Counted from the first letter of the stretch, positions 34,366 to 53,445 are shown. The stretch is DNA of 64,000 nucleotides from Rikenellaceae bacterium (GCA_015059965.1 SUZM01000011.1:13640-77639); one strand, 5' to 3'. Program-made: numbers and translations. The notes: a model not told the origin generated them from the letters alone.

Positions 34366-34373
34366 ATAAAAAA

Positions 34374-34423
34374 AACGGAAACACACAAGTTGTTGGGCGT
34401 TTTGCCCCTTGTGTTGTTCCGTT
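34374..34423 (-). terminator. intrinsic terminator after the S46 peptidase gene
   Basis: AACGGAAACACACAAG - loop - CTTGTGTTGTTCCGTT, flanked by A8 and T8 runs. Confidence 0.85.
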
Positions 34424-34483
34424 TTTTTTCTTTTGCCCCCTTTATAGGGCTTTTGGTGCACGTCTTGCGTGCTTGGGTGCCGG

Positions 34484-36772
34484 TCAGCGCTTGTCGAATT
34501 GCAGCTCCTCGAGCAGGTAACCGGCATCGGCCCACTTCTCGATCACCCACATCACATAGCGGATATCCACAGCCACCGTGCGCGAGAGATCGGGGTGGAA
34601 CCACAGATCGCCCGACATGGATTCGCGGTTGCCGTCGAAGGCCAGGCCGATCAGCTCACCGCGACCGTTGAGCATCGGTGAGCCCGAGTTGCCACCCGTG
34701 ATATCGTTGTTCGTGATCAGGTTCACCTTCAGCTCACCCTTGTCGCCCCAGCGGCCCCAGTCGCGGTTGCGGATCAGCTCCTTCATGCGCTGATCAACCA
34801 CATAGTCGTAGTTCTCGGGGTTCTCTTTCTCCAGGTATCCGCGAATTGTGGAGTGGGAGGCGTAGCGAATACCGTCCACCGGAGAGATCGGCTGCACCGT
34901 TCCGTAGGTCAGGCGCATGGTGGAGTTGGCGTTCGGATATTGGGGAACACCCATTGCCTCGCGGTAGCGGTATTGCAGATCGCGATATTGCTCCTCGAGC
35001 TCGATCACGCGTACGCCCACCTGCTTTTCAGCCTGGGCGATGGCGGCGGCGATGGGTGCGTACTCTACCGACAGAGCGAGGGCTACGAGCGGGTCGTCGA
35101 GGATCTCGCGAACGGAGCGATCCTCGAGCAGGAAGTCGCGGTAGGGTTCGGCCTGGCGGCAGAATGAGCCGTCGAACGAGCTCTCGGCCACCTGACGGGC
35201 ATCCCCGCCGGCCTTACGCATCTGCGAACGCAGGTAGTCGCCCCAGTAGATTTCGGGAACCTCGCGGGTGAAGGTGATGAAACTCTTGACGAAGAGTTCG
35301 CGATCGGTGGCCTCTTCGTAGTTGCGTTCCAGGTGGTTCGAGGCATTCATCAGAGTAGCCCACGACTTGGCCTGCGAGATCGGGCCGCGTCCATGTCGGC
35401 CGCGTCCTTTGCCCTTGCCGTGTCCCTTGCCGTGTCCTTTTCCTCGGGGGCGGGATGAGCCGAGCAACTTCTCCTGCTGCTCTTCATCGGGGCAGTAGAG
35501 CGTGTCGCACTTGTCGTGTTCGAGGCGCTTGGCCAGTGAGGCCACGCGGTTGGCTGCGATCAGGGCCTGGCTCGGCATGAACCACGACTCTTGGTACCAG
35601 GTGCGGTCTGCAATGGCCTTGCGGCGAGCCTCATAGCCCCGTTTCAGGTCGCTGAGCAGGTTGCCGTATTCGGCCTTGCGTGCGGGATCGGCCTCGATCC
35701 ATTGTTGGATCTTGGCCTCCTCGAGGGTGCGGATCTGGCAGACGTGGTAGCGCTTGAGACACTTCTGCTCCCAGCGTACATAGTCGGCGTAGTTGCTCAG
35801 ATTGAAGTAGCCGTCCGAGTAGGCCAGACGCACCAGCGAGTCGGCCTCCATGTGGCGGCGAATGATCTCCATGCGGTTGTGGCGGCACTGCTCGATAATG
35901 GGGTTCTTGAGCTCCTTCTCGCTCACGGCCATCGACGAGCCGTAGCGATGGGTGATGCCCGGGAAACCGATCACCATGGCAAAGTCGCCCTCCTCGACTC
36001 CGCGTGTGGAGATCGGGAGTACGCGGCGGGGCTTGATCGGGCGATTCTCGGTCGAGTAGGCGGCGGGGCGTCCCTCGCTGTTGCCATAGATGCGGTAGAG
36101 GGCAAAGTCGCCCTTGTGCTGCGGCCAGCTCCAATTGTCGGTCTCACCGCCGAATGAGCCGATGCGGGCGGGAGGTGCTCCCACCAGGCGCACATCGGTG
36201 TAGACCTCATATTGCAGCATCAGGAAGAGGCGGCCGTCCCACATCTCGGCGCACCACGACTCGAGCCCCTTGCGGCGGTGGCGGCGCTCCATCTCACTCA
36301 CCAGCTTGCGCGGACCCATGATGCCCCATCTGCCGACAGCCTTCAGCGAGTCGCGGTAGTGGTTGGCCTCTGCCGTGATCTCCTCGATGCCTCGCAGGAA
36401 CATCACCTTCTTCCCCTCGACGGGGAGCTCCTCTCCTTGATTCCGGGCCCAGAAGCCGTCGAAGAGGATGTTGCGCTCGGGGGTCGAGAGCTTGCAGATG
36501 TCGCCGTAGGCCACATGGTGGTTGGTGATCATCAGCCCCTGGTCGGAGATCATACTGCCCGTACCCATACCGCCGTCGATCATCACCACGGCATCGGCCA
36601 GGGCGTTGCCCGACTCCGAGTCGTAGAGTTGATCGGGCTTCAGGCGAAGGCCCTCGGCCTTCATTTCGGGGTAGATCTTCTCGAGCAGGTGGATCAGCCA
36701 CATGCCCTCATCGGCGCTCACCGTACCGCTCATGAGCAGTACGGCGAGCAGCGTGATAATGTATCGTTTCAT
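34484..36772 (-). CDS. S46-family dipeptidyl-peptidase (DPP7/DPP11-like)
   Basis: 762 aa. The signal peptide is followed by DEGMWL, typical of S46. The C-terminus has TGGNSGSPMLNGRGELIGLAFDGN (catalytic Ser). It carries a Gly/Lys/His/Arg-rich insert. Confidence 0.9.
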   Translation of the reverse strand: MKRYIITLLAVLLMSGTVSADEGMWLIHLLEKIYPEMKAEGLRLKPDQLYDSESGNALADAVVMIDGGMGTGSMISDQGLMITNHHVAYGDICKLSTPERNILFDGFWARNQGEELPVEGKKVMFLRGIEEITAEANHYRDSLKAVGRWGIMGPRKLVSEMERRHRRKGLESWCAEMWDGRLFLMLQYEVYTDVRLVGAPPARIGSFGGETDNWSWPQHKGDFALYRIYGNSEGRPAAYSTENRPIKPRRVLPISTRGVEEGDFAMVIGFPGITHRYGSSMAVSEKELKNPIIEQCRHNRMEIIRRHMEADSLVRLAYSDGYFNLSNYADYVRWEQKCLKRYHVCQIRTLEEAKIQQWIEADPARKAEYGNLLSDLKRGYEARRKAIADRTWYQESWFMPSQALIAANRVASLAKRLEHDKCDTLYCPDEEQQEKLLGSSRPRGKGHGKGHGKGKGRGRHGRGPISQAKSWATLMNASNHLERNYEEATDRELFVKSFITFTREVPEIYWGDYLRSQMRKAGGDARQVAESSFDGSFCRQAEPYRDFLLEDRSVREILDDPLVALALSVEYAPIAAAIAQAEKQVGVRVIELEEQYRDLQYRYREAMGVPQYPNANSTMRLTYGTVQPISPVDGIRYASHSTIRGYLEKENPENYDYVVDQRMKELIRNRDWGRWGDKGELKVNLITNNDITGGNSGSPMLNGRGELIGLAFDGNRESMSGDLWFHPDLSRTVAVDIRYVMWVIEKWADAGYLLEELQFDKR

Positions 36773-36796: not shown

Positions 36797-38755
36797 TTAC
36801 TCTTCAACGGTCTTTCCCTCAATGAGGAACGAGATGCGGGGATCCGACTCCTTGAAGGTGCCGTCAGCCATGCGCAGGGTCCACTTCTCGGCCTTGAAGA
36901 TCTCGTTCCAGATCTTCTGGTCGTCCCACAGCGGGGTGGCGTAGGTCAGCTGCAGCGTGGGCACATAGTCGCGCAGGACGAAATCGACGGCGAGAATACC
37001 CTCGCAGGTCGAAAGGAAGCTCTTGAAGTAGGGGAAGCCCATGCGTACAGGCATCTTCTCGATACCCGACATCGGCACCTCGTAGCGGGCACGCGGGAAT
37101 TGGCTCTCATCGGCGCACTTCTCGAGATTCTCCACAAAGCGACCCTTCAGTTTCTTGATATCCTCAAACATCAGGTTGATAAACTCGTCGCGCGTTACGG
37201 TACCCTGACGGGTGCAGGTTACCAGGTCGAAGTTCATCGGGATGGGTTTCGTCTCGGCCTTGGCGTTGGGGAAGATGTACTCCTCGACCTCGACCAGCTC
37301 GCGGATCTGCTTCTCGGTGAAGCCCTTGGCGGGATCGACAAAGAGCTCAACATGTACCGGGCAGTCGAACTGCGAGGTGAAGCCGTAGATTCCCTCCACA
37401 TCGAAGAAGACCAGCCCGAAGTGGGTCATATCGGTGCGGTCGCGCAGACCCTCGACACCAAGTACCAGGCGCTCCAGTACGGGAACCGTCTCATCGGGGG
37501 TGGCATATTTGCGGATTGTGGGGGTGAAGAGCACCTCCTGCAGCTTGCGCTCGTTGGTGATCTCGGGATCGTAGAGGATCTCCACGGCGTGGCTGCGCAC
37601 GAAGGTCTTCACACCGTGCACACCGGCCACGCTCTGCATCTTGGCCGAGAGGGCCTTCGAGCTGCCGAAGCACTTGATCGACTGCAGTCCCTCCATCTTG
37701 AAGGTCTGAAGATTCTCCTTCTGCTCATACTCGCCCCACTTCTCGTCGATGGTCGGCAGCTCCCACTTGTTGCCCAAATAGAGTGCCGAGGCGAAGAGCA
37801 GCACGGCCAGCAGGGCGGGAGCCCAGCGCAGACTCTTGCGACCGTTCACCTGCAGGGCACCCGTGTTGCAAGCCGAGATGCAGTTGCCGCACATCGTGCA
37901 GTCGATGTGGCGAACCTTCGTGAAGTCGTGGATGGGGATGTTGTGCGGGCAACGCTTCTCGCAGAGTCCGCAGCTGTTGCAACGCTCCGTGTCGCGGTCG
38001 ATGGTCAGCACCGGAAGGAAGCAGCTGCGCATCTTGAGCGCCTCGAGCAGGTAGCCGCCGGCGCACATCACGCCCAGTACCCATACCCAGCCGCCTTCGA
38101 TGCCGAGTTTCGAGAGACCCCATGCACCGAGCATCATCAGCACGAAGAAGGGGGTAAACTTGAAGATGTTGCTCAAGGCCCCCAGCGGGCAGATGTAGCG
38201 GCACCAGAACATCTTGACGAAGAGGCTGCCGAGGAAGAGTACCGTCACCATGATGGCCGAGAGCCAGGGGATGATCTCACCCTTGAAACCGGTGGCCAGG
38301 GCATAGTAGGGGTCAAAGCGCTTGCAGAAGAGCTCGCTGGCATCGATCGTGTAGTAGAAGATCACGAACAGGAGCACATACTTCACCACGCGCAGCAGGC
38401 GATCGACGATCGAACCCGTGCGCACCTCGATGTTGCAGTGCATCTTCTTGCCCAGCTTGCCCAGCCATTCGCTCACCGTGCCCAGGGGGCAGAGGTAGCC
38501 GCAGAAGAGTCTGGAGAAGAGGATCACGCCCACGGCGAGCGTAATACCCATCATGATCTGGAGCATTGACATGGAGCAGGCCAACGAGTTGCTGTGCAAG
38601 TAGGTAGACAGCGCTTCCAATCCGCCGAAGGGGCAGTAGGCCTCCACATCGACGGGCTGTTCGTTGATCTTACGCCAGGCAATGGTCCCCACAATGGCGG
38701 CCAGCACGCCCCATTGCAGCAGGTTTTTCAGGTAGTTCGGATGCGAATGTTTCAT
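36797..38755 (-). CDS. membrane polyferredoxin (NapH/CcoG-like 4Fe-4S protein) with ~320-aa C-terminal extension
   Basis: 652 aa with TM segments carrying CPFGG, CGYLCPLGT and CRYICPLGA motifs. It has two ferredoxin motifs (CNSCGLCEKRCP, CTMCGNCISAC), followed by repeated beta-alpha-beta-like modules. Confidence 0.8.
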   Translation of the reverse strand: MKHSHPNYLKNLLQWGVLAAIVGTIAWRKINEQPVDVEAYCPFGGLEALSTYLHSNSLACSMSMLQIMMGITLAVGVILFSRLFCGYLCPLGTVSEWLGKLGKKMHCNIEVRTGSIVDRLLRVVKYVLLFVIFYYTIDASELFCKRFDPYYALATGFKGEIIPWLSAIMVTVLFLGSLFVKMFWCRYICPLGALSNIFKFTPFFVLMMLGAWGLSKLGIEGGWVWVLGVMCAGGYLLEALKMRSCFLPVLTIDRDTERCNSCGLCEKRCPHNIPIHDFTKVRHIDCTMCGNCISACNTGALQVNGRKSLRWAPALLAVLLFASALYLGNKWELPTIDEKWGEYEQKENLQTFKMEGLQSIKCFGSSKALSAKMQSVAGVHGVKTFVRSHAVEILYDPEITNERKLQEVLFTPTIRKYATPDETVPVLERLVLGVEGLRDRTDMTHFGLVFFDVEGIYGFTSQFDCPVHVELFVDPAKGFTEKQIRELVEVEEYIFPNAKAETKPIPMNFDLVTCTRQGTVTRDEFINLMFEDIKKLKGRFVENLEKCADESQFPRARYEVPMSGIEKMPVRMGFPYFKSFLSTCEGILAVDFVLRDYVPTLQLTYATPLWDDQKIWNEIFKAEKWTLRMADGTFKESDPRISFLIEGKTVEE

Positions 38756-38855
38756 CTTGACTTGTTTTATGTTTTCTTGCGTGTTAGTTTACGCCACAAA
38801 GGGGAATCGGCCGATGGCCGACTCCCTTGGAGGCAATTCTGATTTTGCCCAATAA

Positions 38856-40427
38856 CTATTCCTTATCCTTTATGCAGCGAATCGATCCGCCGGCAAGGAA
38901 GTTACCCTTGGCAACCTGTACGCGTTCGAACGAGGCGTTCCAGAGTGACATGAAGTCGTAGAACTGGATGTTCTTGAGCGAACCGTCTTCGTTGGTGGTT
39001 GCCGAAATGAAGGTCGAACCGCGCACATAGCTCATTACGCCATATACGCCGTCGTAGTTCGTTACCAGGTAGCTGCCCTTGGCGCTTGTCGTGGTCTTGT
39101 TGCGGGCGCCGGCAAACGACCAGGGCCATCCGGCCTCGGCCAATGCACTCAGCGAAGCTCCGCTGATGGCGGCATCATAGTAGGCACCCTCAGGATTGGT
39201 CAGCGCACCATCGGCACAGTGGCCCACCAGACCGGTCATCTCCGTAACGGTCGGGATGTGCCAGCCCTCGGGGCAGATACCCTGCGTACCCTCTAACGAA
39301 GCGGCATTTTCAGCCGTTACAGCCTCCACACCGAAGGCCGTGGCGGCATCGTAGAGCAGACCCAGCGTAGTGACCAGGTTGGGATCGGCTACCTTGTCGG
39401 CATTGGCTGCCGGGTACCAGATACCGGCATCCTCAGCCGGATCGCTCGATACGGTCTTGCCTTCCGGGATGTAGCGCAGGTTCTCGGCCATCCAGGTGTT
39501 GCCGTCGGCCAGGACTACCGTATTATAGGTCTCGCCGTGGTAAACAAAGTAACCCTCATACTCGGTGAACTCCTCCTCTACGGGGGGCACCTCACCGCCA
39601 TCCTCGGGCTTCAGCTCACCCATATCCTCCCAGTTCTCGATCTCATCGCCAAGCTCCACATCTACGCTCGAGGGGAGTACGGTGATGGACATCGAGTACT
39701 GACCACCGCTCTGGAGCGTGGCCTCGGCCAGGCTCTGGGTGAAGAGCTCCGTCTTACCCTCCTTCTCGGTGCTGACCACCACCTTCAGGGCTGCGGTCTG
39801 CGGCACGATGATGGCGGCATACTTCGACCCCGGAGTCAGCTCGCGAGCCTTGATCGTCGTGGCCTCCACGCCGGCCTTGACAGCTGCGCTCTGTTCCTCA
39901 ACCGAGATCTCGGCCGTCGGCACGACGTTGTAGAGCGTAACACCCGTTACGGTGGCATCGTAGTCGTTCGTGATGTTGATCACGATCTTGGTCATCTTGT
40001 GGTAGAAGGTCATATCGATGGCCTGTGTCGAGGGGGTAACGCCCTCCTTGCGGGCCATCATCAGATCCGAGGCGAAGTAGCCGTCGCCGGTCTGATCTTC
40101 CTGGATCGTGAACTCCGCAGGCTGCGTCTCGGCATAGGGGTAGTAGGCCGTGAGCGTAGCCTCCAGGCCGGCATCCTCATACCACTCCAGGCCGGTGGCC
40201 GAGGTGAAGAGCTCGCCCGAGAAGACCAACTTGGCATTCTCGGCGTGCAGACCCTCTGCCGTGGTGATGTTCAGACCGATGGCATCGCCCTTCTCGAAAT
40301 CCACCTCTGTGGCACGCGTGATGGTGGGATCCACCGCTACAGCCTTCCGTCCCGAGAGGCTCTCACCGGCCTCTTTCGTACAGCTTGCCAGAACTATGGC
40401 CGCTGCAAAAATCAATAATTTTTTCAT
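38856..40427 (-). CDS. surface lipoprotein: fimbrillin-like N-terminal module fused to a FISUMP (Fibrobacter succinogenes major paralogous) domain
   Basis: The ORF is 38856..40433 (TTG). The ATG gives MKKLLIFAAAIVLASCTKE. The N-terminal part is homologous to the gene at 1..1392 (FEKGDAIGL...LEWYEDAGLEATLTAYYPYA). The C-terminal part has NTWMAENLRY...GICPEGWHIPT. Confidence 0.82.
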   Translation of the reverse strand: MKKLLIFAAAIVLASCTKEAGESLSGRKAVAVDPTITRATEVDFEKGDAIGLNITTAEGLHAENAKLVFSGELFTSATGLEWYEDAGLEATLTAYYPYAETQPAEFTIQEDQTGDGYFASDLMMARKEGVTPSTQAIDMTFYHKMTKIVINITNDYDATVTGVTLYNVVPTAEISVEEQSAAVKAGVEATTIKARELTPGSKYAAIIVPQTAALKVVVSTEKEGKTELFTQSLAEATLQSGGQYSMSITVLPSSVDVELGDEIENWEDMGELKPEDGGEVPPVEEEFTEYEGYFVYHGETYNTVVLADGNTWMAENLRYIPEGKTVSSDPAEDAGIWYPAANADKVADPNLVTTLGLLYDAATAFGVEAVTAENAASLEGTQGICPEGWHIPTVTEMTGLVGHCADGALTNPEGAYYDAAISGASLSALAEAGWPWSFAGARNKTTTSAKGSYLVTNYDGVYGVMSYVRGSTFISATTNEDGSLKNIQFYDFMSLWNASFERVQVAKGNFLAGGSIRCIKDKE

Positions 40428-40470
40428 ACGCAATTGTTTTATAGTTAATAGTTTTCTATTTTTTTGCTCG

Positions 40471-40516
40471 TCTCTTTATTCCTCGGTTCTTTATTCCTCG
40501 TCTCTTTATCTTTCGG
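40471..40516. repeat. tandem direct repeat 3 x 15-16 nt (TCTCTTTATTCCTCG-like)
   Basis: Seen in the spacer between the DUF6850-like gene and the fimbrillin-FISUMP gene. It resembles the CTCTTTATTTCGG end of repeat copy F. Confidence 0.8.
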
Positions 40517-40527
40517 CTTCATTGCAT

Positions 40528-42045
40528 TTACCATCGGTATCCGAAGGCAAGCGTTGAGGTGATGCGGTTGGGCTGGGGGACCACGCTGAGGTTAAAACCG
40601 TGCTCCCAGAGTGCCGACAGGTCGGTATAGAATCCCTTGCCAAGGTAGATGCGCACGGCAAGTTCCACCCCTAAGCGGCAGGCCGTCAGGTATTCGTTCT
40701 CCCAGGCAAAGAGCTCGCTCTGCTGCATCGGATAGGGGCTCTCGGGGATTAAGCTGCTCTCGGAGGCCTCCCATTCGCTGTGGCTGCCTCGGCGGAGGTG
40801 CATGCCGAGTGTCAGTTCGGCCGGTCGCCAGCTGTAGCGCTCCCGAATGAAGAGGTGCCATTGGCGCAGGGTCTGCCCCATGATCCGGGGGTAGAGGAGC
40901 GACGATTGCTCGCGGCGCAGGGTGTATGCTATCCCCGCCTCAAAGTGTGATCCTCCCTGCTCCCACTCATAGCCCAGGCCCGTGTGGAGGGTTCTCTGCT
41001 CGAGGATGGGCACCGAGCCGTAGACGGTGGGGATCGTCACGCCGCCCTCGGTGGTGGTCGTGAGGATCACCTCGCGATTCTTGAGCAGCTGCCAGTCGAT
41101 CTCTGCGCGCAGGATGTGGCGAGCCCCCTTTTGGGTGCGGTGGTGCCAACTGATCAGACCGCTGAGGCGGTCGCCCTCAAACTCATGCCATACGCTCCCC
41201 TTCTCGCCCGTGTCACCCGAGGTGTGGCGGTATGCTGCTTCGCCGAAGAGCTCGCCGTATTGGAGTTGCAGGCCTGCGCCGTGGATGTTCTTCTGAATCG
41301 GGAAGGAGGTGATGCCCGATTCGTCGAGGTGGAGATCACCACTGGTCCAGAGTTGTTCGACACCATAGTAGAGTCCCTTGTCAAGGAAGGCCTTGTAGGA
41401 GTCCGGAGTGGAGCCGATCTCCTCGGCTTCAACGCTCTCGGTGTGCTTCTCGAAGAGGTAGACGGCACCCACGGCCCAGCGCCCCTTGTGCCACTGCACG
41501 GCGGGGATGACTTCAAAGTCGAGGGTTGTGTTTTTGTGGCGCAGGTCCTTGCGTTTGGCGTAGTTGCCGGCCATGAAGTCGATGCCGATACCCAGGCGCC
41601 AATGCTCTCCCATGTCGGCCGAGAGGTCGCCCTCAAAGGCGTAGCGCTCGCGGATCTTACGTCCGGGGGTGTACTCGTAGAGGTCTACGGGCCACGAGCC
41701 CGGGGTGGTGAACATCGAGCCCCACATCTCGCTTCCGGAGAAGTAGTCGTAGGCGAAGTTGCCGGCAAAGGAGAGGCGTTTGAAGTGGCGAATCGACTCC
41801 GTGCGGCCTCCGGCATCAAAGCCCTTGTCGGTGGACGAGTGGTTCATCAGCCCGCCCCGCTCGAGGGTTCCCCACACCTCGGCGTAGGAGTATTCCGTTG
41901 TGTCGCAGCGCAGACCTGCGCGGTTGAGCGAGGCGTTCCACGGGTTGTGGCCCATCACCTCCTCGAAACGCTGGGCCCTCAACCCTTCGGGTGCGAGGGT
42001 GTAGGCAATGAGGAGCAGTATGCTCAGGATGGTCTCTCTTCTCAT
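40528..42045 (-). CDS. outer-membrane beta-barrel protein (DUF6850-like)
   Basis: 505 aa with a signal peptide, alternating strand pattern and terminal ...LAFGYRW. The family name is from memory. It overlaps the upstream gene by 4 nt. Confidence 0.7.
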   Translation of the reverse strand: MRRETILSILLLIAYTLAPEGLRAQRFEEVMGHNPWNASLNRAGLRCDTTEYSYAEVWGTLERGGLMNHSSTDKGFDAGGRTESIRHFKRLSFAGNFAYDYFSGSEMWGSMFTTPGSWPVDLYEYTPGRKIRERYAFEGDLSADMGEHWRLGIGIDFMAGNYAKRKDLRHKNTTLDFEVIPAVQWHKGRWAVGAVYLFEKHTESVEAEEIGSTPDSYKAFLDKGLYYGVEQLWTSGDLHLDESGITSFPIQKNIHGAGLQLQYGELFGEAAYRHTSGDTGEKGSVWHEFEGDRLSGLISWHHRTQKGARHILRAEIDWQLLKNREVILTTTTEGGVTIPTVYGSVPILEQRTLHTGLGYEWEQGGSHFEAGIAYTLRREQSSLLYPRIMGQTLRQWHLFIRERYSWRPAELTLGMHLRRGSHSEWEASESSLIPESPYPMQQSELFAWENEYLTACRLGVELAVRIYLGKGFYTDLSALWEHGFNLSVVPQPNRITSTLAFGYRW

Positions 42046-43286
42046 AAGCTCTTCAGGGATTGTTCCTCGCGCTCGTAGAGGTCAGTCGAGGAGTTGTTTG
42101 TGTCGATATAGATCTCATAGCCCGAGGCTGCGGTGGCCGCCTCATCGAGGTGGCGATGCAGGGTGTGGCCCATGGCCGAACCCGAGAGCAGGACGAAGCC
42201 GGCATCTACCGAGTCGGGCAGTCGCTTGGTGTTGTTCGAAGCGGTGCCGTTGTAGACCTCCACCCCATCGAGTATCCACTCCCAGGGGACCTTCACGCAG
42301 AGGTCTGTTGATCCCGGTTTGGTGATCGTGGAGTTGGCTCGGTCGGCCAGATATGCCTCGATGTCGGTCCCCTCGGGGGCGCGGAAGATCACCAGCGTGG
42401 GCGAATTCACCGAGAGGATGTAGCCATTCGAGCGACCGGTCTTGATCAGCACCTCGCAGTAGCGCTCCTCGCTGATCTGGTCGCCAGGTGCCGGGTGGTA
42501 CATCACATTGGGGTAGAGGGTGGGGTTGTAGCAGGCAAAGTAGTCTGTCCGGTTCAGGTTCACCGACTCGGGGTATTGTGCCGTGTGGTCGATGGCACCG
42601 TTTATCGCCACCACGGCCCCTTCGCCCGGAGCCAGCGGGAAGTCGGTGCCCGAGCCCGGCAGTCGCCATACGGCCTCGGTGATGGGGGCATACTCGCGGA
42701 AGGTGACCGCACCTGTTTCGGGGTCGATCGTGGTCCAGACGTTGCCGGCCGGGGCGTTTGAGTTGTAGGGGTCGAGCGTGCCGAAGCAGAGGCCGTCCAG
42801 GTACTGCACTTCGGCGTGGTTGTTGTGCAGGATGAAGTAGCGGTCGGCTTGGTAGTAGCCTTCGTAGGGGGCCTTCGAGCAGCCGCCGCTGTAGAGCTCG
42901 CGGATAACGATCTGCCCGGGCTTCGAGTAGGTGAGCGGCACTCGCAACTGCAGGTTGCCGTCGGTGAGGCGCACCTTGTCGCTCAGGCCGTTGAAGATCG
43001 CCTCGTCGCTCTTGTCTGCTACCGTAATGCGGTAGAATCCCTTGGTGAGGCTGAAGCGGGCGCACCCTTTGGCATCGGTCGGTTGCATATAGGCAGCGGC
43101 CGTGTAGATGTTCTCGGCCCTCACGGCGATTCCTTCGCGCAGGAACTCCTCATACCCTTCGGGGTAGTCTACCTGCACCTCGAGTTGGAGCAGTGCCTCA
43201 TCGTAAACCCCCTCGGAGAGGGTCGTGCAGCCGACCAGCAGGGCGCTCAGGCCGACCAGAAAAAGCCTATGGAGTTGTCTTCTCAT
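42042..43286 (-). CDS. lipoprotein (DUF4876-like)
   Basis: 414 aa with lipobox LLVGCTT. It starts 6 nt after the TonB-dependent receptor gene. The family name is from memory. Confidence 0.7.
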   Translation of the reverse strand: MRRQLHRLFLVGLSALLVGCTTLSEGVYDEALLQLEVQVDYPEGYEEFLREGIAVRAENIYTAAAYMQPTDAKGCARFSLTKGFYRITVADKSDEAIFNGLSDKVRLTDGNLQLRVPLTYSKPGQIVIRELYSGGCSKAPYEGYYQADRYFILHNNHAEVQYLDGLCFGTLDPYNSNAPAGNVWTTIDPETGAVTFREYAPITEAVWRLPGSGTDFPLAPGEGAVVAINGAIDHTAQYPESVNLNRTDYFACYNPTLYPNVMYHPAPGDQISEERYCEVLIKTGRSNGYILSVNSPTLVIFRAPEGTDIEAYLADRANSTITKPGSTDLCVKVPWEWILDGVEVYNGTASNNTKRLPDSVDAGFVLLSGSAMGHTLHRHLDEAATAASGYEIYIDTNNSSTDLYEREEQSLKSL

Positions 43287-43292
43287 GGTGTA

Positions 43293-46127
43293 CTAAAACT
43301 TTAGGCGCAGGGTCACTCCGTAGTAGAAGCCCGGGGTGCGGATCACACGCACACCCGAGGCGTATGAGGTGACGTAACGGCGCGAGTTGGTGAAGTTGTT
43401 GGCATAGAACGAGATCGAGGCGATGTTTCCGATCTCCTTGGTGATGCTCAGATTGGCCGAGAAGTAGGGGTCGTAGCCATCTGTGTCGTACTGGTAGGCC
43501 GTGCCCGAGCGCAGGATGAGCGGAGCGAAGGCGGGATCGGCGGCCTCGGCATCGGTGAAGGGGTGGATCACCCCGTCGGTGGTCATGTAGTAGAGCGGGC
43601 GGATGGCCGTGTAGTTGCCTCCGTCGTAGATCGAGCCCCCCAGGGGGTTGCCCTCTTCATCGACATTGTAGGCGTACTCTTCACCCCCGTAGCAGCTCAG
43701 GTTCTGGCTCTGTTTCACGAGTGAGGCCTCTAAGCGCAGGGTGATGATCATGCGGATCGAGGGGATGTGGGTCGTCGTCGTGAGATTTACGTCGAGCGAG
43801 TGGCTCTTGTGGCCGTTGTAGGTTACCGATGTGAGTCCCTTGTTGTCGGCGTAGATGCCCACATATTCGTAGGAGTTGCCGCTCTGGGTCGTACTCGATA
43901 CCGAGGGGTAGTACCAGGAGGTACCCTCGCTGATGTATTTTGTGTAGGTATAGGCGGCATCCAGGCGAATCTCGGTGCGAATGGGGTTGATCGTCGGGAA
44001 CCAGGCCGTGAGCTCGGCTCCCATGCGGTCGATGGGCGATCCGTTATCTTGTCTCTTGCTGCGGGTGAAGGTCTCGTTGCGCCCTTTGTGTTCCATTTTT
44101 ATCCACCCTTCGGAGAGGTTGTCGCCATCGCGCACGAAGAGTTCACCGGTCTGCGAATCGACCTTCAGCAACGGATTCTGGGGGATCACATACCCTTCGG
44201 GGGTGCCGTAGCGGTCGAAGGCGATGGGCAGGAACTCCACCGTGGTTTCATAGGGGTTGTGGGTGCGGTTGAAGAAGGCCGCCAAGGAGATGCGGGTCTT
44301 GCCCGGTCGGAGGTCTAGACCCACCTCGGCGTTGCGGTTGCGCTGCCATTTCAGTTCGGGGTTGAACGCCATCTGATAGGGGTGGGTGTAGTAGACATAG
44401 GAGTTTCCGCCCGACCAGGTGAGGTCGAAGACGCGCACGTCGGTGTACTCCGGACGGGGGTAGAGCACGCCGAGCGAGGGGAGCTTCTCGGCCAGGCCCC
44501 AGCCACCGCGGATCGAGACCTTTTCACTCAGCTTCCAGCGGGCATTCAGACGGGGTGACCAGGTGAGCGTGTGCTGGTAGTCGCTCCCCTCGATAAAGCT
44601 CTTCTCTCCGCGCAGACCCGCCATCAGGGTGAGCGATGTGGAGCCCACCGGAAGGGTCAGGGTCTCCTCGATCCAGAAGGCCAGGTTGTGCAGATAGGGA
44701 ATCTCGGTGTAGGGGTAGGGGCGGTAGCCGTGGGGGGCCAGGGCGGGGTCTTCGTAGTACTCGCCTTGGCCGACATTTCCTTCGGAGCGCCACTGCAGGC
44801 CCGCCTTCAGGTTACTCAGCCAGCGACCCTCGTCCCACGAACGGATCCACTTTGCCTTGAGCGAAGCTTCGTAGTCGAGTTGCTTGGAGTCGATGTATTG
44901 GGTGGCGAAGTGGTTCTCGGGGAGCAGCGTGGCCGGGTAGTACCCTTCGTAGGGGCTGTGTACGGCCGGCAGGCGCGAGCTGTTTGAGACGTAGGTGGTA
45001 TTGCGTTGCAGATTGTCCGTGTAGTTTACCGACCCCGAGAGCTCCACGTCGGTGATCCAGCGCTTGTTGAGCAACCATTTGAGCGAGGCGTTGGCTCGGA
45101 TGACGTTGTCGCGTTCGTGCTCGCTCTGTCCGCGGAAGACGTCGGGATCATCCTCGGTGTTCATGCCGCCCAGGTTGCCGGATAAGCCCGCCTCGAGGCG
45201 CAGGACCTCGAGCAGGGTATTCGAGTAGTGGAGCGAGAGACCCGAGCGGGAGTAGGAGGAGTAGGGAGATACGGGATTTTTGGTTGCACGGGCATACTCC
45301 AGCGCCGTGTTCAGAACTCCTTTTTTGGGGCCCAGGTCGAAGCCCTTCGATAGGGAGGCCTGCTTCGTGCGCGGGTTGGCCATCAGCTGGATGTTCCAGG
45401 GGGTCTTGCCCTTGCGGGTAGAGATCTTCACCATGCCGCTGCCCACATCGCCATATTCGGCCGAGGGGACACCCGTGATCACCTCCACCTGTTCGATGTT
45501 CGTCGAGGCGATATTGCGGGTCGAGGCTCCCGAGGCTTCGCCCATCGAGGAGTTGGTCGAGAGGCGCACGCCATCGACCTCCACAGCAGTCGAGAAGGCG
45601 GCATTACCCACCGACTCGCCGCCATCGCGCAGCGAGAGGATGTTATCCTCCATCAGGTCGGGATTGACGGTCTTGCCACCCGGCAGCAACGATTGGATAT
45701 CCGAGGCGTTGAGCACCTGCATGTGCTCCAGGGCATTGCTGCCGATGGTGCGCGAAGTGGAGAGGGCGCTGCCGCTCTCGGTGGCTGTTACCACCACCTC
45801 ATCGACCTTCAGGTTGTCCTCGATCATCTCCAGGCGGATCACTCCGCTTGTCGGAACGCGGATTTTGCTCTCGAGGGTGACGAAGCCCAGTGAGGTTACC
45901 GCGACGAGGTGCTCGCCCGCCGGGACTCCTTTCAGATGAAAGTCTCCTTTGTCGTCCGCCACGGCCCACAGCCCGAGTTGAGGGAGTTCGATGACTGCCA
46001 TCTCAACGGGAGTCTCCGATCCTTTAACAACCACCCGTCCCTCAATGGACGAGTGTTGAGCCGCTGTTCGTAGCGGCAGCAACAGCGTCAGCCATGTGCT
46101 TAAAATGCATATCGTATACCTCCACAT
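43293..46127 (-). CDS. TonB-dependent receptor with N-terminal carboxypeptidase-regulatory-like domain
   Basis: 944 aa with a signal peptide. CarbopepD-like IEGRVVVKGSETPVEMAVIELPQLGLWAVADDKGDFHLKGVPAGEH, then a plug and barrel ending YGVTLRLKF. Confidence 0.9.
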   Translation of the reverse strand: MWRYTICILSTWLTLLLPLRTAAQHSSIEGRVVVKGSETPVEMAVIELPQLGLWAVADDKGDFHLKGVPAGEHLVAVTSLGFVTLESKIRVPTSGVIRLEMIEDNLKVDEVVVTATESGSALSTSRTIGSNALEHMQVLNASDIQSLLPGGKTVNPDLMEDNILSLRDGGESVGNAAFSTAVEVDGVRLSTNSSMGEASGASTRNIASTNIEQVEVITGVPSAEYGDVGSGMVKISTRKGKTPWNIQLMANPRTKQASLSKGFDLGPKKGVLNTALEYARATKNPVSPYSSYSRSGLSLHYSNTLLEVLRLEAGLSGNLGGMNTEDDPDVFRGQSEHERDNVIRANASLKWLLNKRWITDVELSGSVNYTDNLQRNTTYVSNSSRLPAVHSPYEGYYPATLLPENHFATQYIDSKQLDYEASLKAKWIRSWDEGRWLSNLKAGLQWRSEGNVGQGEYYEDPALAPHGYRPYPYTEIPYLHNLAFWIEETLTLPVGSTSLTLMAGLRGEKSFIEGSDYQHTLTWSPRLNARWKLSEKVSIRGGWGLAEKLPSLGVLYPRPEYTDVRVFDLTWSGGNSYVYYTHPYQMAFNPELKWQRNRNAEVGLDLRPGKTRISLAAFFNRTHNPYETTVEFLPIAFDRYGTPEGYVIPQNPLLKVDSQTGELFVRDGDNLSEGWIKMEHKGRNETFTRSKRQDNGSPIDRMGAELTAWFPTINPIRTEIRLDAAYTYTKYISEGTSWYYPSVSSTTQSGNSYEYVGIYADNKGLTSVTYNGHKSHSLDVNLTTTTHIPSIRMIITLRLEASLVKQSQNLSCYGGEEYAYNVDEEGNPLGGSIYDGGNYTAIRPLYYMTTDGVIHPFTDAEAADPAFAPLILRSGTAYQYDTDGYDPYFSANLSITKEIGNIASISFYANNFTNSRRYVTSYASGVRVIRTPGFYYGVTLRLKF

Positions 46128-46228
46128 AAAGAAATGATCGTTTTTGTTTGCAAAAATACAAAAAAACGGTCATTTCTTTATAATGGTTGGTCGAAAAATG
46201 TGTTGTACTGGTTTGAAAATAGTTCTTT

Positions 46229-47212
46229 TTACGGCCTTTTGTTGTGCCAATCCGAATGGTCGGCTTTCTCGGAATGGGAGTCGGATCGGAACAGCGGCAG
46301 CAGGAAGATCCAGCTCACCAGGCAGAAGGCGACAGTCAGTGTCGGCACCCCGAAGGGGGCGAGTATCACGTTGGCAGCCCCCTGCGCAAAGAGGGTGAGC
46401 ACTACGCCCAGCACGGCCCAAAGGGCCGAGCGCCACGAAGGGCGGTGGAAGACGGCCCCCAGGGCAATACCTGTCAATACGGGACTGAAACCGTAGAGGC
46501 CGAGGCTGATCTCTGTCCCCGGAGCCTGAAAGAGGAGTGCCAGGGCTAAGGCCAGGGCCGATGAGAAGGCGGCCCAGAAGGCGGCCCAGCCGTTTGCGCT
46601 GATCAGCCCCGCCAAGAAGAAGAGCCCCGTGACCCAAGAGTCGAACAGGAAGACTTGGGCGATACCCCGCAACCAATAGAAGATCAGGTGAATGGGGCCT
46701 GTGGCCAGGTGGATGCTCCCCTCCTGGTGGAGTGCCGGAGTGGGCAACCCCTCGGCGGAAAGTCCTTCGAAGCTGTGGGCCGCGGCCAGCAGCAGCCAGC
46801 AGATCAGTACGAAGGGCATGGTCAGCGAGTTGAGCCGCCAACGCCGCATCACGCGGTTCATCCCCTCGCGCAGCCAGACTGTCGAGGCGGCACCCAGCAT
46901 CAGGACGCACCAGGTCAGCGGAGTGCTCCTCAGGAAGCTCATCAGGGCACAACCCAGCAGAATGCCGTTGAAGCCCCATAGACCCGCCTCCCCCTCCGAG
47001 GGTTTCAGGCGCAGCAGGTGGCCGGTCAGGGTCGATACCGCGAGGCCGACCACGGCACCCCATGCTACGGCCATCCGCCCCTCGCTCCAGGCACCCCAAA
47101 AGATGCCGATCAGAAAGAAGAGGCTGCAGCTCACACTCTGCTGAAACATCACCTGTCCTGCGCCGCACAGCATGCCGCGCAACATCGTTCTAATGGTTTG
47201 TATGCGATTCAT
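46229..47212 (-). CDS. urea transporter (UT family)
   Basis: 327 aa, polytopic. GAGQVMFQQS and GLWGFNGILLGCAL are typical of UT/Yut channels. It lies directly downstream of ureD. Confidence 0.85.
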   Translation of the reverse strand: MNRIQTIRTMLRGMLCGAGQVMFQQSVSCSLFFLIGIFWGAWSEGRMAVAWGAVVGLAVSTLTGHLLRLKPSEGEAGLWGFNGILLGCALMSFLRSTPLTWCVLMLGAASTVWLREGMNRVMRRWRLNSLTMPFVLICWLLLAAAHSFEGLSAEGLPTPALHQEGSIHLATGPIHLIFYWLRGIAQVFLFDSWVTGLFFLAGLISANGWAAFWAAFSSALALALALLFQAPGTEISLGLYGFSPVLTGIALGAVFHRPSWRSALWAVLGVVLTLFAQGAANVILAPFGVPTLTVAFCLVSWIFLLPLFRSDSHSEKADHSDWHNKRP

Positions 47213-47240
47213 TTGGTGTGGGAATTTCTAAGTGATTCAA

Positions 47241-47276
47241 TTTGTATATAACTCTTATTTTGTATATAACTTTTAT
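47241..47276. repeat. tandem direct repeat 2 x 18 nt (TTTGTATATAACTCTTAT / TTTGTATATAACTTTTAT)
   Basis: Seen in the ureD-urea transporter spacer. Confidence 0.85.
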
Positions 47277-47305
47277 TGTGCAAAACAGCATAAATTAGAA
47301 ATTTT

Positions 47306-48223
47306 TTATCGCCAGGGGAACTCCTCGGGCATGGGGACTCCTTTGATTGTTTGGCGCACGCAGGAGCAGAGCTCACGCAGGAGCCCTTTGGCGGTTTCGC
47401 CCCTGCGGCTCAGGATGCGGCATTGCAGGCCGGCATCGTTTGGCAGGCGCAGGAGCCCCAGACCATACTCTTCGAAGAGACCGACCCGGGGGCCGATCTT
47501 CTGAAAGAGGGTGTCGCGAGCCTCTTTCGGGGTGAGGATGAGTGCCGAGGCAAAGACCTCGTATCGGCCCAGCACCCCCGGGCTTGCCGGAGAGTGCCGT
47601 GCGGGCTCCAGGAGGATCTTTTCGCGCATCAGCTCCCGGCCCGATGGACGGCGCACCGAGAGGTTCAGCGCCAGCAGATCGTAGCGAAAACGCTCATCGT
47701 GGTGCCGGTGTCGTCCGGCCAGGCAGCACTCCCCGTAGAAGAGGGTGGCCGTGGGATCTATCGTGAGCTCCGTCGTGCTCCACCTGCGGCTGTTGCGGCA
47801 GGGGATCAGGGGCTCGGGCAGGTACTCCATATAGGCCCCTTTGTCGAGGCGGAAGCGCTGTTCGACGGCCGAGAAGTTGTGGCGCATCGTGGCCACCTTC
47901 GTGGCGGCCCCCGTGGAGAGGAAGAGCTCCCCCTCGGGGCCCACATCCACCTCGGTCAGGTAGCGGTCGCCATCCACCTCGGGCCCACCGGCGGAGAGGA
48001 TGTAGAGACAGGCCATTCCGGGCAACTGCTCATCAAAGTAGAGGGCCTGCTGGGCAATCAGCGGGGCGTGGCGCTCCCATCTTTTCAGAAGGGTTCGCCC
48101 TTTGGGGTCGCGCTCGAAGCCCAGGCGCAGGAGTCCGCATTTGCCGGCGCCGCCCGCCGCCATGGCCGGAGGATCGGCTCCATAGGGCTTTAGTTCGCGG
48201 ATGGCTGAGAGGTCGCTCATCAT
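47306..48223 (-). CDS. ureD: urease accessory protein UreD/UreH
   Basis: 305 aa with UreD-family similarity. It overlaps ureG by 4 nt. Confidence 0.88.
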
Positions 48224-48849
48224 GGCTCGTCCGGCAGTTGGAGGTCAAAGAGGGCCATGCGGCGGATTAGGCCCAGGAGCTCGTCAATCCCCTCGCCACT
48301 TCGACAGTTCGTAAACAGAAAGGGTTTGCCCGGGCGCATGAGCTCCGAGTCGCGGCGCATCACCTCGAGCGAGGCTCCCACATAGGGGGCCAGGTCGAAC
48401 TTGTTGATCACCAGGATATCCGACTGCGAAATACCGGGGCCGTCCTTGCGCGGAATCTTGTCGCCCGCCGCCACGTCGATCACATAGATGAAGAAATCGA
48501 CCAGCGCAGGGCTGAAGGTGAGCGTGAGGTTGTCGCCGCCCGACTCGATGAGTACCACCTCCGAGTCGGGGAAACGCCGTTCCATCTCCTCCACGGCGGC
48601 CAGATTCATCGACGGATCTTCGCGCACGGCGGTATGGGGGCAGGCCCCCGTCTCCACGCCCAGGATGCGATCCTCCATCAGGATTCCCTTGAGCATGCGG
48701 CGTACATGTTCGGCATCCTCCGTGGTGACAATGTCGTTGGTGATCACCAATACCCGGAGACCGAGCTCCAGGAAGCGAGGCACCAGGGCCTCAATCAAGG
48801 CGGTCTTTCCCGACCCTACGGGCCCGCCGATTCCGATCCTGCAAGACAT
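48220..48849 (-). CDS. ureG: urease accessory GTPase UreG
   Basis: 209 aa with P-loop [13 protein letters not shown], metal-binding [13 protein letters not shown] and the G4 motif INKFDL. Confidence 0.95.
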
Positions 48850-48877
48850 AGTTTAAATTTTTCAGCATTTATAATTT

Positions 48878-49028
48878 AATGAGCAATGAGCAATGAGCAA
48901 TGAGCAATTGGGCTTACGCACCGAGATAATCGATTGGGAATATTTCCAACGACAAGAAAATCATTTCTTACTACTCACTTCTCATTTCTCATTGCTCATT
49001 ACTCATTACTCATTTCTCATTTCTCATT
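48878..49028. repeat. composite repeat copy B, between ureF and ureG
   Basis: (AATGAGC)x4, then AATTGGGCTTACGCACCGAGATAATCGATTGGGAATATTTCCAACGACAAGAAAATCATT, then nine 7-nt units of type nCTCATT. Confidence 0.9.
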
Positions 49029-49043
49029 GCACACAGCATTCTC

Positions 49044-49745
49044 CTAATTCATAAACATGCGCTGCGTGCCTTGTTCGTGCATCGAAGCGAGGATCTCCAA
49101 TTCGGGGGCGAAGAGTTCGATCTCGTCGAGCGTTCGGGGCGCGAGCTCCGCATAGAGCTCTTCGACCTGCGGGGCCAGGCCGAAGAGGAGTCGCTGTGTC
49201 GCGAGGTGGTCGATGCGCATCAGACGCAGGGCGGCACTCGTTATCTGCGAGGCGATGCCGTAGAGCAGGGTCGTGAAGAGCTCCTCCTCGCTCAGCTCGA
49301 GAGTCGAGAAGAGCACCCCCATTGTGGTGGCGTGGTGTCCCGCGATCTCACCCTTGCGGATCGCCTCGGCCCAGCGGCCGGGGGCCTCTTCGGGGAGCAT
49401 GTCGCGGGCCAGCTCGGCGAGCTTATGGCCCATGCGCAGGCTCATGCGGCGGTTTTCGTCCCCAGTCTTGAAGAGGCTGAGGCGTTCGTCGGCCCTTCGG
49501 GCCTCTGCGAAATCGCCTCGAACTGTCGCGCGGCAGGCTGCAAGAGAGGCCACGCCGTCGCAGGTTGCCGACTGACGGACCGCCGCGAGCAGAAACTCTC
49601 CGAGCGATCTTTCCGAGGTGACTCTTCCCGCCGCCACCGCCGCCTCGAGTCCCACCGAGAAGCTGAAGCCCCCGACCGGCAGTGCCGAGTCGGAGAGTTG
49701 CCTCAGCCAAAAGGCGCGGCTAACCCTGCTCTTCGGGGTGCTCAT
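49044..49745 (-). CDS. ureF: urease accessory protein UreF
   Basis: 233 aa. LRQLSDSALPVGGFSFSVGLEAAV is typical of UreF. Confidence 0.9.
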   Translation of the reverse strand: MSTPKSRVSRAFWLRQLSDSALPVGGFSFSVGLEAAVAAGRVTSERSLGEFLLAAVRQSATCDGVASLAACRATVRGDFAEARRADERLSLFKTGDENRRMSLRMGHKLAELARDMLPEEAPGRWAEAIRKGEIAGHHATTMGVLFSTLELSEEELFTTLLYGIASQITSAALRLMRIDHLATQRLLFGLAPQVEELYAELAPRTLDEIELFAPELEILASMHEQGTQRMFMN

Positions 49746-50304
49746 CTTCGGTGTGGTGGTTGTGGTGTTGCTCTGTGCCGCCGAACAGGCGCCGTACCTC
49801 GTGGGGGGCGAGGTAGGGAATTACTTCCCCTCCCGCCTCGAAGTGGCACTCGACCCCCTCCGGGTGGTGGCTCTCGATGACGCTCAGCATCACCTTGCGG
49901 TCCACGGTGAGCGGTACATAGACCTTTTTGTGGCGGATCACGGCGGGCCAATGTTGGTTGCCGATGGCGTGACCCAACTCGAAGAGCCGCTCCTGCTGCA
50001 CCGCGAGGGGAAACTCTTGCAACCCTTCCAGGTCGATGACCAGGACTTCGTTTAGGGCGAGGCTCACCACCAGCGCCCGACCCGTTTGGGGGTCGTAGCG
50101 CAGGATGTCCCCATCGTGCAGGCGCTCGGGGCGCCTGAGGGCCACGGCTACCTCCTCCCCCGAATCGGTGTGGGCCACGAAGCGGCTCTTTTGAGCGGTC
50201 CACTGGTCGAGTACCAGCCGTTCGATAGTGGCCTGGGCCAGTCGTTCGGCCCAGGCCGGCTCGTGGCGGTTGCCCGCCACCGAGGTGAAAAGTGTGCGCT
50301 CCAT
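49720..50304 (-). CDS. ureE: urease accessory (Ni metallochaperone) protein UreE
   Basis: The ORF is 49720..50481. The start at MERTLFTS overlaps the ureC stop (ATGA). It has GNQHWP and a His-rich tail HHNHHTEDEH. Confidence 0.88.
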   Translation of the reverse strand: MERTLFTSVAGNRHEPAWAERLAQATIERLVLDQWTAQKSRFVAHTDSGEEVAVALRRPERLHDGDILRYDPQTGRALVVSLALNEVLVIDLEGLQEFPLAVQQERLFELGHAIGNQHWPAVIRHKKVYVPLTVDRKVMLSVIESHHPEGVECHFEAGGEVIPYLAPHEVRRLFGGTEQHHNHHTEDEHPEEQG

Positions 50305-52022: not shown

Positions 52023-52025
52023 TTC

Positions 52026-52559
52026 TTATCTCTCGGTTTTGTGGTTACTTAATCCTTGTTTTTCGGTCTCCGGGCATTGCTCGGGCTTCTCGTTCGAGCA
52101 GTGGTGGCCGTGTCGGGGCTCCACATCGCGAAAGCCCAAGTGCTTCATCCTGCGGAAGGCGAGGGCCTTGGCGGGATAGTATCCCGGGGCCTCTTCACGG
52201 GCCGTGCACCCCTGTGCCAGGCCATTGAAGCCGATGATGCGCTGCTTGCCCGCAAAGGGGACGATCTGAACCGTCTTCTCATCCCCGGGCTCGAAGCGGA
52301 TGGCCGTCGTGGCGGGGATGTTCAGGTGACAGCCGAAGGCCGCCTTGCGGTCGAACTGCAGGTAGCGGTTGGCCTCGAAGAGGTGGAAGTGTGAGCCCAC
52401 CTGAATGGGGCGATCTCCCGTGTTTTGGATGAGCAGGGTGGTTACGGGGCGATCCTCGTTGTAGGTTATCGGCTCTGCGGCCAGAAGGGTGCCGCCGACC
52501 GGAACGGCCTCGCGGGGTGCAAAGCCTTGCTCCATGGGGTATATCGAATGCTTCTTCAT
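52026..52559 (-). CDS. ureB: urease subunit beta with extended His/Cys-containing C-terminal tail
   Basis: 177 aa. The core has [17 protein letters not shown]...IRFEPGDEK. About 50 extra C-terminal residues include [14 protein letters not shown]. Confidence 0.92.
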
Positions 52560-52564
52560 AGGGC

Positions 52565-53430: not shown

Positions 53431-53445
53431 GCAAGGATTGTGCCA
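53431..53445 (-). promoter_or_regulatory. sigma-54 type -24/-12 promoter element TGGCACAATCCTTGC upstream of crcB
   Basis: The minus strand reads CTGGCAC-AATCC-TTGCC, a perfect match to TGGCAC-N5-TTGC. The GC of the -12 element is 29 nt before the crcB ATG. rpoN is present in this window. Confidence 0.55.

Follow-up and report, generated by a model that had tools for sequence, protein, structure and literature searches.

We analysed a 64,000-nucleotide stretch of DNA from a Rikenellaceae bacterium (GCA_015059965.1 SUZM01000011.1:13640-77639; hereafter the window), in which the urease genes ureABCEFGD and a urea transporter gene are followed, on the same strand, by a module for outer-membrane and redox proteins. 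Its core is a triad of genes encoding a TonB-dependent receptor, a DUF4876 lipoprotein and a DUF6850 β-barrel; a fimbrillin-FISUMP surface lipoprotein gene completes a quartet, and genes for a membrane polyferredoxin and an S46 dipeptidyl-peptidase come next. An original prediction, made from the sequence alone, read the module as a candidate metal acquisition system that may supply nickel to urease. Metal uptake is supported by our analysis, whereas nickel delivery to urease is not, in view of a genomic survey, the induction of orthologues by iron or haem shortage and the presence of a separate promoter box. The module is probably a separate iron-type uptake operon, the Rikenellaceae version of a family that includes BT3625-BT3633 of Bacteroides thetaiotaomicron and PG1019-PG1022 of Porphyromonas gingivalis, placed beside urease by a rearrangement confined to one lineage.

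The three core genes run in one direction, with a non-SusC receptor first, a lipobox-bearing DUF4876 lipoprotein second and the DUF6850 barrel third. Against the SusC/RagA model TIGR04056 the receptor scores 32 bits (cut-off 368), and its sole match in a search of solved structures is a distant one to the plug of CirA. The DUF4876 protein, which is present in a single copy in the window's genome and has about 1,570 homologues, matches a structural-genomics entry described as a ‘putative lipoprotein’ (PDB 4q1z, 2e-29). Price proposed that such proteins serve as surface ‘lids’ of non-SusC transporters (bioRxiv 10.1101/2023.03.17.533168); the transporter/DUF4876 pairs considered there show the arrangement found in the window, a same-strand non-SusC receptor and then a lipobox lipoprotein, and the lid role is an AlphaFold-Multimer prediction without a genetic phenotype. 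An AlphaFold2 model of the DUF6850 protein (predicted local distance difference test (pLDDT) 83.5; predicted template modelling score 0.81) is a large plug-less barrel of about 18-20 strands. Its closest folds are AlgE, the barrels of TonB-dependent transporters and FadL, with template modelling scores of only 0.3-0.4 that reflect a generic likeness. For the fourth protein, the signal peptide of the Bacteroides FISUMP counterpart, BT_3630, sends cargo to the surface of outer-membrane vesicles (PMC11554821).

One Bacteroides locus runs receptor, DUF4876, DUF6850, FISUMP, hypothetical protein, PepSY_TM, ABC ATPase, hypothetical protein and DUF4857, the same series of genes as BT3633 to BT3625 in descending order. 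The first four genes are shared with the window in content and order, at protein identities of 51% (to the BT3633-type receptor), 53% (53-54% across the Bacteroides DUF4876 orthologues), 36% and 37%, and the FISUMP protein of the window differs in having an extra Mfa-like N-terminal domain. Beyond this core the two loci diverge: BT3625-BT3633 continues with small PepSY_TM proteins, an ABC ATPase, a putative permease and DUF4857, whereas the window has a 652-residue polyferredoxin and the S46 peptidase. Searches of the whole genome by tblastn gave no match to the Bacteroides PepSY_TM, hyp195, hyp222 or DUF4857 proteins and only generic ATPases, at 20-27% identity, for the ABC ATPase; the PepSY_TM, ABC ATPase-permease and DUF4857 part of the full operon is absent.

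Members of this family respond strongly to iron or haem shortage. BT3625-BT3633 rise 37- to 128-fold in B. thetaiotaomicron exposed to 150 µM dipyridyl and are also up in a colitis model, and the P. gingivalis genes PG1019-22, which include DUF4876 and receptor genes, rise 21- to 214-fold under iron or haem limitation (PMC10434189). PG1019 and PG1020 also increase in a hemH mutant grown without haem and have been termed an uncharacterised transport system (PMC13096392), so that the earlier remark that the three-gene core has no assigned function holds in the literature up to 2026. We liken PG1019-PG1022 to the window by description and not by sequence: they too combine a DUF4876 lipoprotein, a TonB-dependent receptor and hypothetical genes, and they differ in belonging to the more distant BT1938/BT1939 branch (PMC10434189) and in having no reported polyferredoxin. 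Receptor/DUF4876/DUF6850 loci rank with the strongest iron-starvation responders of the gut and oral Bacteroidota. Metal uptake is a plausible role for the window's module, with iron or haem as the best supported substrate.

What distinguishes the Rikenellaceae version is the exchange of PepSY_TM for a CcoG/NapH-like polyferredoxin with HMA-like domains. The protein contains three CxxxCP-type motifs and two CxxCxxCxxxC clusters, and the invariant residues include those of the CxxxCP-type motifs and the two four-cysteine clusters, the loop residues C41, C60 and C144, and the C-terminal residues C362 and C465, the last two across 31 homologues. It was originally described as NapH/CcoG-like; it scores far below the cut-off of either named family (NapH/MauN TIGR02163, 55.8 bits against 213; CcoG TIGR02745, 20.1 against 316.7), and it also falls far short of that of the NosR model. 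With CcoG, NapH and NosH-type proteins it shares the Fer4_5 CxxxCP motifs, a pair of [4Fe-4S] motifs, one more transmembrane helix and a predicted extracytoplasmic C-terminal domain. It departs from CcoG and NapH in these scores and in its C-terminal half, made of tandem HMA-like domains without CxxC. In the AlphaFold2 model (pLDDT 78.9 overall, 85-94 in the C-terminal half), residues 330-652 (window 36797-37770) have their best fold matches in the tandem HMA domains of CopA and ATP7B, with a weak match in sequence as well. The first two HMA-like domains each hold one invariant cysteine, C362 and C465, respectively. We predict seven transmembrane helices, with the Fe-S clusters on the cytoplasmic side and the HMA-like half in the periplasm.

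The polyferredoxin accompanies the triad in three different gene orders. It follows the FISUMP gene in the window and at loci L012, L010, L011, L007, L008, L035 and L036; in Tidjanibacter (L033) the order is FISUMP, polyferredoxin, S46, hypothetical protein, receptor, DUF4876 and DUF6850; and at L034 the triad is followed by an M16 peptidase gene on the opposite strand, the polyferredoxin gene and the S46 gene. PepSY_TM genes hold the equivalent slot in Bacteroides and at L014, and in three low-GC Bacteroidota genomes a di-haem CCP_MauG gene lies directly after the triad (L016:10753-11892, L017:10699-11823 and L018:10699-11847). The PepSY_TM proteins known so far work as ferrisiderophore reductases in the periplasm, and the reductase CcoG acts on Cu(II) (PMC13038864). 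That three unrelated redox proteins share this slot suggests a redox reaction following import, a starting point for experiments, and we infer that the polyferredoxin has taken over this step of an iron-type uptake pathway without being orthologous to the proteins it replaces. Other triad loci hold HEAT-repeat proteins or type IX-secreted BNR/sortilin proteins in the CCP_MauG position.

A pathway can be proposed from these parts. The sequences show the homology, anatomy, distribution and rearrangement history of the operon; its substrate, the membrane topology and the direction and role of electron transfer are inferences. A Bacteroidota sigma-A-type promoter inside a hairpin would drive the operon from the receptor gene to the S46 gene, the surface lipoproteins would capture an iron-bearing substrate, and the TonB-dependent transporter would move it into the periplasm. 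There, the polyferredoxin may pass electrons from its cytoplasmic [4Fe-4S] clusters toward the periplasmic HMA-like domains (both sides being predictions), in the position taken by PepSY_TM in Bacteroides and by di-haem CCP_MauG in other Bacteroidota. Fe2+ could then enter through FeoB, whose gene is present in the window's genome.

The module appears to have its own transcription start. A Bacteroidota-type -7 box (TATTTTTG) precedes the receptor ATG by about 24 nt and sits in the loop of the hairpin that separates the urea transporter and receptor genes. A TAnnTTTG(C) box is found before the receptor gene at seven of seven aligned loci, urease-linked and unlinked, and among the 16 minus-strand spacers from OPT to crcB only two contain a box, those before the receptor and OPT genes (29 boxes in the whole window, both strands). 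The hairpin itself, which the original prediction had pointed out, proved real, with a minimum free energy of -29.8 kcal/mol that none of 200 shuffled sequences matched (z = -5.15), and at L012 the architecture recurs with compensatory base changes. In the window the 3' arm of the hairpin adjoins the receptor ATG, and an extended stem pairs the AUG. A transcript arriving from the urea transporter gene would have its receptor AUG hidden in the hairpin, whereas internally started RNA would hold only the 3' arm. Co-transcription of the receptor module with urease appears unlikely because the receptor gene has its own -7 box and a hairpin that would insulate it. Scanning for generic sigma-70 promoters and terminators gave nothing informative in this Bacteroidota genome.

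On the distal side, no further -7 box interrupts the stretch from the receptor gene to the far end of the S46 gene, which begins 24 nt after the polyferredoxin gene and is followed by a terminator-like hairpin with a T-run, as read from the spacer sequence; the OPT gene has a box (TAGCTTTG) directly after that terminator. The five genes originally counted in the module are all confirmed, and the unbroken stretch and the terminator beyond it indicate that S46 is probably a sixth, so that the operon would run from receptor through S46. Wherever a Rikenellaceae locus has the polyferredoxin gene, S46 comes next (ten of ten loci: the window and loci in the ranges L007-L012 and L033-L036), with gaps of 2-130 nt. 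In the window, the short gap and the lack of a box suggest that the peptidase is co-transcribed with the uptake operon.

Urease shows different signals. Upstream of crcB-ure lies a sigma-54 -24/-12 match, TGGCAC-N5-TTGC (53431-53445, minus strand), the sole one in the window, where 0.13 are expected; there is no TAnnTTTG box before crcB or ureA, and rpoN is encoded within the window. The sigma-54 site and rpoN would fit nitrogen control of urease, apart from the module. An Rfam search of the 36-54 kb region found no NiCo or other metal riboswitch. Its sole above-threshold match, 5_ureB_sRNA (51572-51872, plus strand, antisense in ureC; 63 bits against a gathering threshold of 40), probably reflects conserved coding sequence and not a real small RNA.

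The triad is found mostly without urease. DUF6850 exceeds the family cut-off in 31 of 401 Bacteroidota genomes, and we compared the neighbourhoods of the 20 best loci. Receptor and DUF4876 genes lie beside DUF6850 in 19 of the best 20; at the twentieth (L020), tblastn finds a receptor, and a 481-residue open reading frame occupies the DUF4876 position. Within 10 kb of these best 20 loci, UreC, UreG and the urea transporter do not occur. For the family level we used whole-genome family searches of an even sample of 251 Rikenellaceae genomes with look-up of the encoding contigs, which replaced a search with a single DUF4876 protein that had returned 3 loci only. DUF4876 is present in 89 of these genomes and Urease_alpha in 76; the two coincide in 25, which shows no association (odds ratio 0.85, p = 0.67). 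DUF4876 and urease lie within 15 kb of one another only in the window's genome, one of the 25 that carry both, and the next closest pair is 52 kb apart. The survey of triad and ure genes called for in the original prediction shows neither linkage in the phylum nor association in the family, and the orthologues are instead tied to iron and haem by their responses.

The junction of urea transporter and receptor genes occurs in the window and at loci L012, L062, L002 and L003, where DUF4876 is 77%, 76%, 72% and 68% identical to the window protein, respectively. Unlinked loci follow at 66% (L036), 65% (L009), 64% (L010), 58% (L011), 52% (L007) and 50% (L008). A tree of the concatenated receptor, DUF4876 and DUF6850 proteins groups the urease-linked loci together (support 0.998) within a set of unlinked Alistipes loci; judged from this tree, the junction is limited to a single clade that comprises five or more Alistipes-like species. 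The nearest sampled relative, G146 (urea transporter 63% and UreC 82% identical), carries the two units separately, with S46-polyferredoxin-FISUMP-DUF6850-DUF4876-receptor at 53.5-64.9 kb and urea transporter to ureA at 108.3-114.8 kb; the units share contig and strand, with 43 kb between them. The block at 19-34 kb of the window, which includes OPT, PepT, NadE, rpoN and a second receptor gene, lies inverted between them. This arrangement implies that a local rearrangement joined two units that were already distant neighbours. The original prediction had cautioned that the adjacency could be coincidental. A striking adjacency can be the product of rearrangement even where the lack of a transporter seems to argue for a functional link.

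Several points weigh against an iron-type operon of this kind. No substrate has been shown for any family member, and mutants in BT3632 and BT3633 had no phenotype in 519 fitness experiments (bioRxiv 10.1101/2023.03.17.533168). The induction is not strictly iron-specific, as dipyridyl also chelates Ni, Co, Cu and Zn. The polyferredoxin topology was read by eye from hydrophobic segments and the positive-inside rule, and reduction in the periplasm is an assumption because CcoG is thought to act on the cytoplasmic side. Finally, of the five urease-linked species, three (L002, L003 and L062) have no polyferredoxin or S46 gene at the locus, so the quartet may not need them nearby.

The presence of a peptidase gene in the putative operon raises an alternative that we regard as unlikely, namely that the receptor imports a haem- or iron-bearing peptide or protein whose carrier is degraded by the co-transcribed periplasmic S46 enzyme, the polyferredoxin then reducing the freed metal, as a Bacteroidota analogue of Fus ferredoxin piracy. 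The constant position of S46 after the polyferredoxin gene (10/10 loci), the lack of a promoter box between them in the window and the response of PG1019/PG1020 to haem limitation are all compatible with it, as are the peptidase-like ‘HEAT repeat’ genes in other versions of the triad (L013; BT1933-39) and an M16 peptidase gene that adjoins the module at L011 and L034. However, S46 enzymes act as exopeptidases in general peptide catabolism, and with an OPT-PepT module immediately downstream the link may be plain synteny. Three urease-linked species retain the quartet without S46 nearby, and the Bacteroides locus has no peptidase gene. The Fus system encodes a dedicated periplasmic M16 protease with its receptor; we rejected M16 as a Fus-like partner here, as this neighbour is unconserved, adjoining the module at L011 and L034 only, and the orthologue in the window's genome (G000) lies on another contig, C10.

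A second alternative, which strikes us as improbable, is that the substrate is not a metal but a peptide, glycan or cofactor, that the iron response of the homologues is indirect and that the polyferredoxin is an unrelated neighbour. It would accommodate a family with no known substrate and B. thetaiotaomicron mutants without a phenotype, and many surface proteins use FISUMP and Mfa-like domains as generic modules for binding, with type IX-secreted BNR/sortilin proteins in some versions of the triad. Against this stand the 20- to 214-fold inductions in two distant species, among the strongest responses to iron starvation, the recurrence of redox partners beside the triad (PepSY_TM, CCP_MauG and polyferredoxin) and the HMA-like domains of the polyferredoxin.

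The proposal of nickel supply has to be weighed against the usual neighbour of urease in this family. At 11 of 12 other urease loci, the order is a divergent crcB, ureABCEFGD, the urea transporter, nikMN (CbiM and PDGLE), nikQ (CbiQ), nikO (ABC ATPase) and a convergent MFS gene; an example of the nik block after the urea transporter gene, from loci L038-L048, is L039:15630-18168. CbiM occurs in 66 of the 251 genomes, all of them urease-positive (66/76, against 0/175 urease-negative genomes), usually about 6 kb from ureC. Such a distribution marks a dedicated urease partner, and that of DUF4876 is different. CbiM is missing from ten urease-positive genomes, among them G000 and G146, and G651, the genome of the urease-linked locus L003, likewise has none. 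The lineage with the urease junction had also lost nikMNQO, which normally follows the urea transporter gene. The earlier observation that the window contains no recognisable nickel importer extends to the whole 98.8%-complete genome for NicO, HupE/UreJ and CbiM, NikABCDE-type transporters not having been searched. Although nikMNQO is strictly tied to urease in Rikenellaceae, about one in eight urease-positive species have lost it without a recognised substitute, which poses a nickel question for gut Alistipes.

It is in this nik-less Alistipes clade that the receptor module might carry nickel or a nickel chelate across the outer membrane, in the manner of Helicobacter FrpB4, a reading that we find very improbable. 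The module does occupy the slot immediately after the urea transporter gene in which 66 of 76 urease-positive relatives hold nikMN-nikQ-nikO, the junction has persisted in five or more species despite changes on both outer sides, CbiM is absent from G000, G651 and G146 (and NicO and HupE/UreJ from G000), the urease genes are intact with a His-rich UreE tail, and the polyferredoxin carries HMA-like domains. NikMNQO/CbiMNQO and the module share this slot without homology, and the former belongs to the inner membrane, the latter to the outer. The argument from a missing importer fails because an outer-membrane receptor cannot stand in for the inner-membrane energy-coupling factor importer NikMNQO; an inner-membrane gap would remain, for which CorA, present in G000, is a possible low-affinity route. 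CorA serves as such a route for Ni and Co in enterobacteria.

Genomic evidence likewise speaks against nickel. In addition to the odds ratio of 0.85, none of the other nine nik-less urease-positive genomes has the triad beside urease, with DUF4876 missing from four and located elsewhere in five. In four of the ten nik-less genomes, the MFS gene adjoins the urea transporter gene, so that nik is cleanly deleted, and there is no receptor in the vicinity. An apparent enrichment of DUF4876 among nik-less urease-positive genomes (6/10 against 19/66 of those with nik, p = 0.07) vanished within the genus (5/9 against 14/23), and histidine content was discarded as a nickel signature, since receptors have 15-18 histidines at linked and 10-16 at unlinked loci and the ranges overlap. 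Unlinked orthologues are 64-70% identical to the window proteins, branch lengths in the urease-linked clade are ordinary, the receptor gene has its own putative promoter and a hairpin that would insulate it, and the Rfam search of the 36-54 kb region returned no NiCo riboswitch or other nickel-related element.

Helicobacter pylori FrpB4, likened here by description and not by sequence, is likewise a TonB-dependent receptor in a urease producer. It is under the control of NikR, whereas no such control is visible at the window's module, and it is not known to have a DUF4876 or DUF6850 partner. A variant in which an iron-type module was co-opted for nickel in the nik-less clade, selection accounting for its fixed position behind the urea transporter gene in five or more species, we rate slightly lower still. 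If true, it would mean a TonB-dependent nickel route in Bacteroidota that feeds a further inner-membrane step. The operon is better read as an iron-type system that rearrangement has placed beside urease.

Genes of the region were assigned by Pfam and profile scans of the window, which corresponds to contig C9:13640-77639 of a 1.95-Mb genome. On the minus strand, in order of falling coordinate, they are crcB, ureABCEFGD, the urea transporter, receptor, DUF4876, DUF6850, Mfa/FISUMP, polyferredoxin, S46 and OPT genes (Table 1). The module genes and their strand are as originally placed, and the 6-nt gap between the receptor and DUF4876 genes and the 4-nt overlap between DUF4876 and DUF6850 are both exact.

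Table 1. Features of the urease and receptor-module region, in window coordinates.
Feature	Position	Strand	Description or support
crcB	53028-53402	-	Fluoride channel; co-directional with ureA here
ureA, B, C, E, F, G, D	52867-47306	-	Pfam
Urea transporter gene	46229-47212	-	Pfam
ureABCEFGD and urea transporter, neighbouring unit outside the module	46229-52867	-	Pfam
Hairpin between urea transporter and receptor genes	46128-46179	-	Predicted fold
-7 box of receptor gene	46151-46158	-	Bacteroidota type, TAnnTTTG
Non-SusC TonB-dependent transporter, 944 residues	43293-46127	-	CarboxypepD_reg-like, Plug and β-barrel; PF13715, PF07715, PF00593
DUF4876 lipoprotein, putative surface ‘lid’, 414 residues	42042-43286	-	Lipobox LLVGC; PF16215 E = 5e-34, 118 bits
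DUF6850 outer-membrane β-barrel without plug, 505 residues	40528-42045	-	PF21012 E = 7e-35, 121 bits
Surface lipoprotein, Mfa_like_1 fimbrillin and FISUMP	38856-40433	-	Lipobox LASC; PF13149 E = 9e-37; PF09603 E = 1e-14
Membrane polyferredoxin, 652 residues	36797-38755	-	Pfam Fer4_5 (two) and Fer4
S46 (DPP7-like) dipeptidyl-peptidase	34484-36772	-	PF10459 E = 2e-171
Terminator-like hairpin and T-run after S46 gene	34368-34424	-	Spacer sequence
-7 box of OPT gene	34365 (first base)	-	Directly after S46 terminator

Two gene calls need adjustment. The start of the Mfa/FISUMP lipoprotein is likely the ATG at 40427. For ureABCEFGD, the order and strand first given were right, but ureE is not the open reading frame at 49742-50203, which has no Pfam match; it is the frame at 49720-50301 (minus strand), which matches UreE_N and UreE_C, ends in the His-rich tail ...EQHHNHHTEDEHPEEQG and overlaps ureF by 26 nt. 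The true ureE probably starts at a non-ATG codon.

Some further observations concern the urease genes. In nearly every Rikenellaceae urease locus that we saw (L037-L056), crcB flanks ureA, usually divergently; in the window the two are co-directional. The pairing of crcB with ure genes may be functional because fluoride inhibits urease. Two genomes of the same genus (G031 and G171; loci L049 and L052) have a divergent urease, with UreC 58-60% identical, preceded by two ABC ATPase genes that may be UrtDE-like; these genomes lack a urea transporter, nik genes and DUF4876. The 194-nt spacer between ureG and ureF (48850-49043) contains inverted arrays of 7-nt units, GAGAAAT/GAGTAAT facing CATTGCT, around a core. 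A second set of repeats, three units of about 15 nt resembling GAGGAATAAAGA(A/G)(A/C)C, occupies the DUF6850-FISUMP spacer (40434-40527), which has no -7 box. Elsewhere in the window, at 19605-22600 on the minus strand, a second non-SusC TonB-dependent receptor gene (751 residues) adjoins a gene for a LuxR-type regulator.

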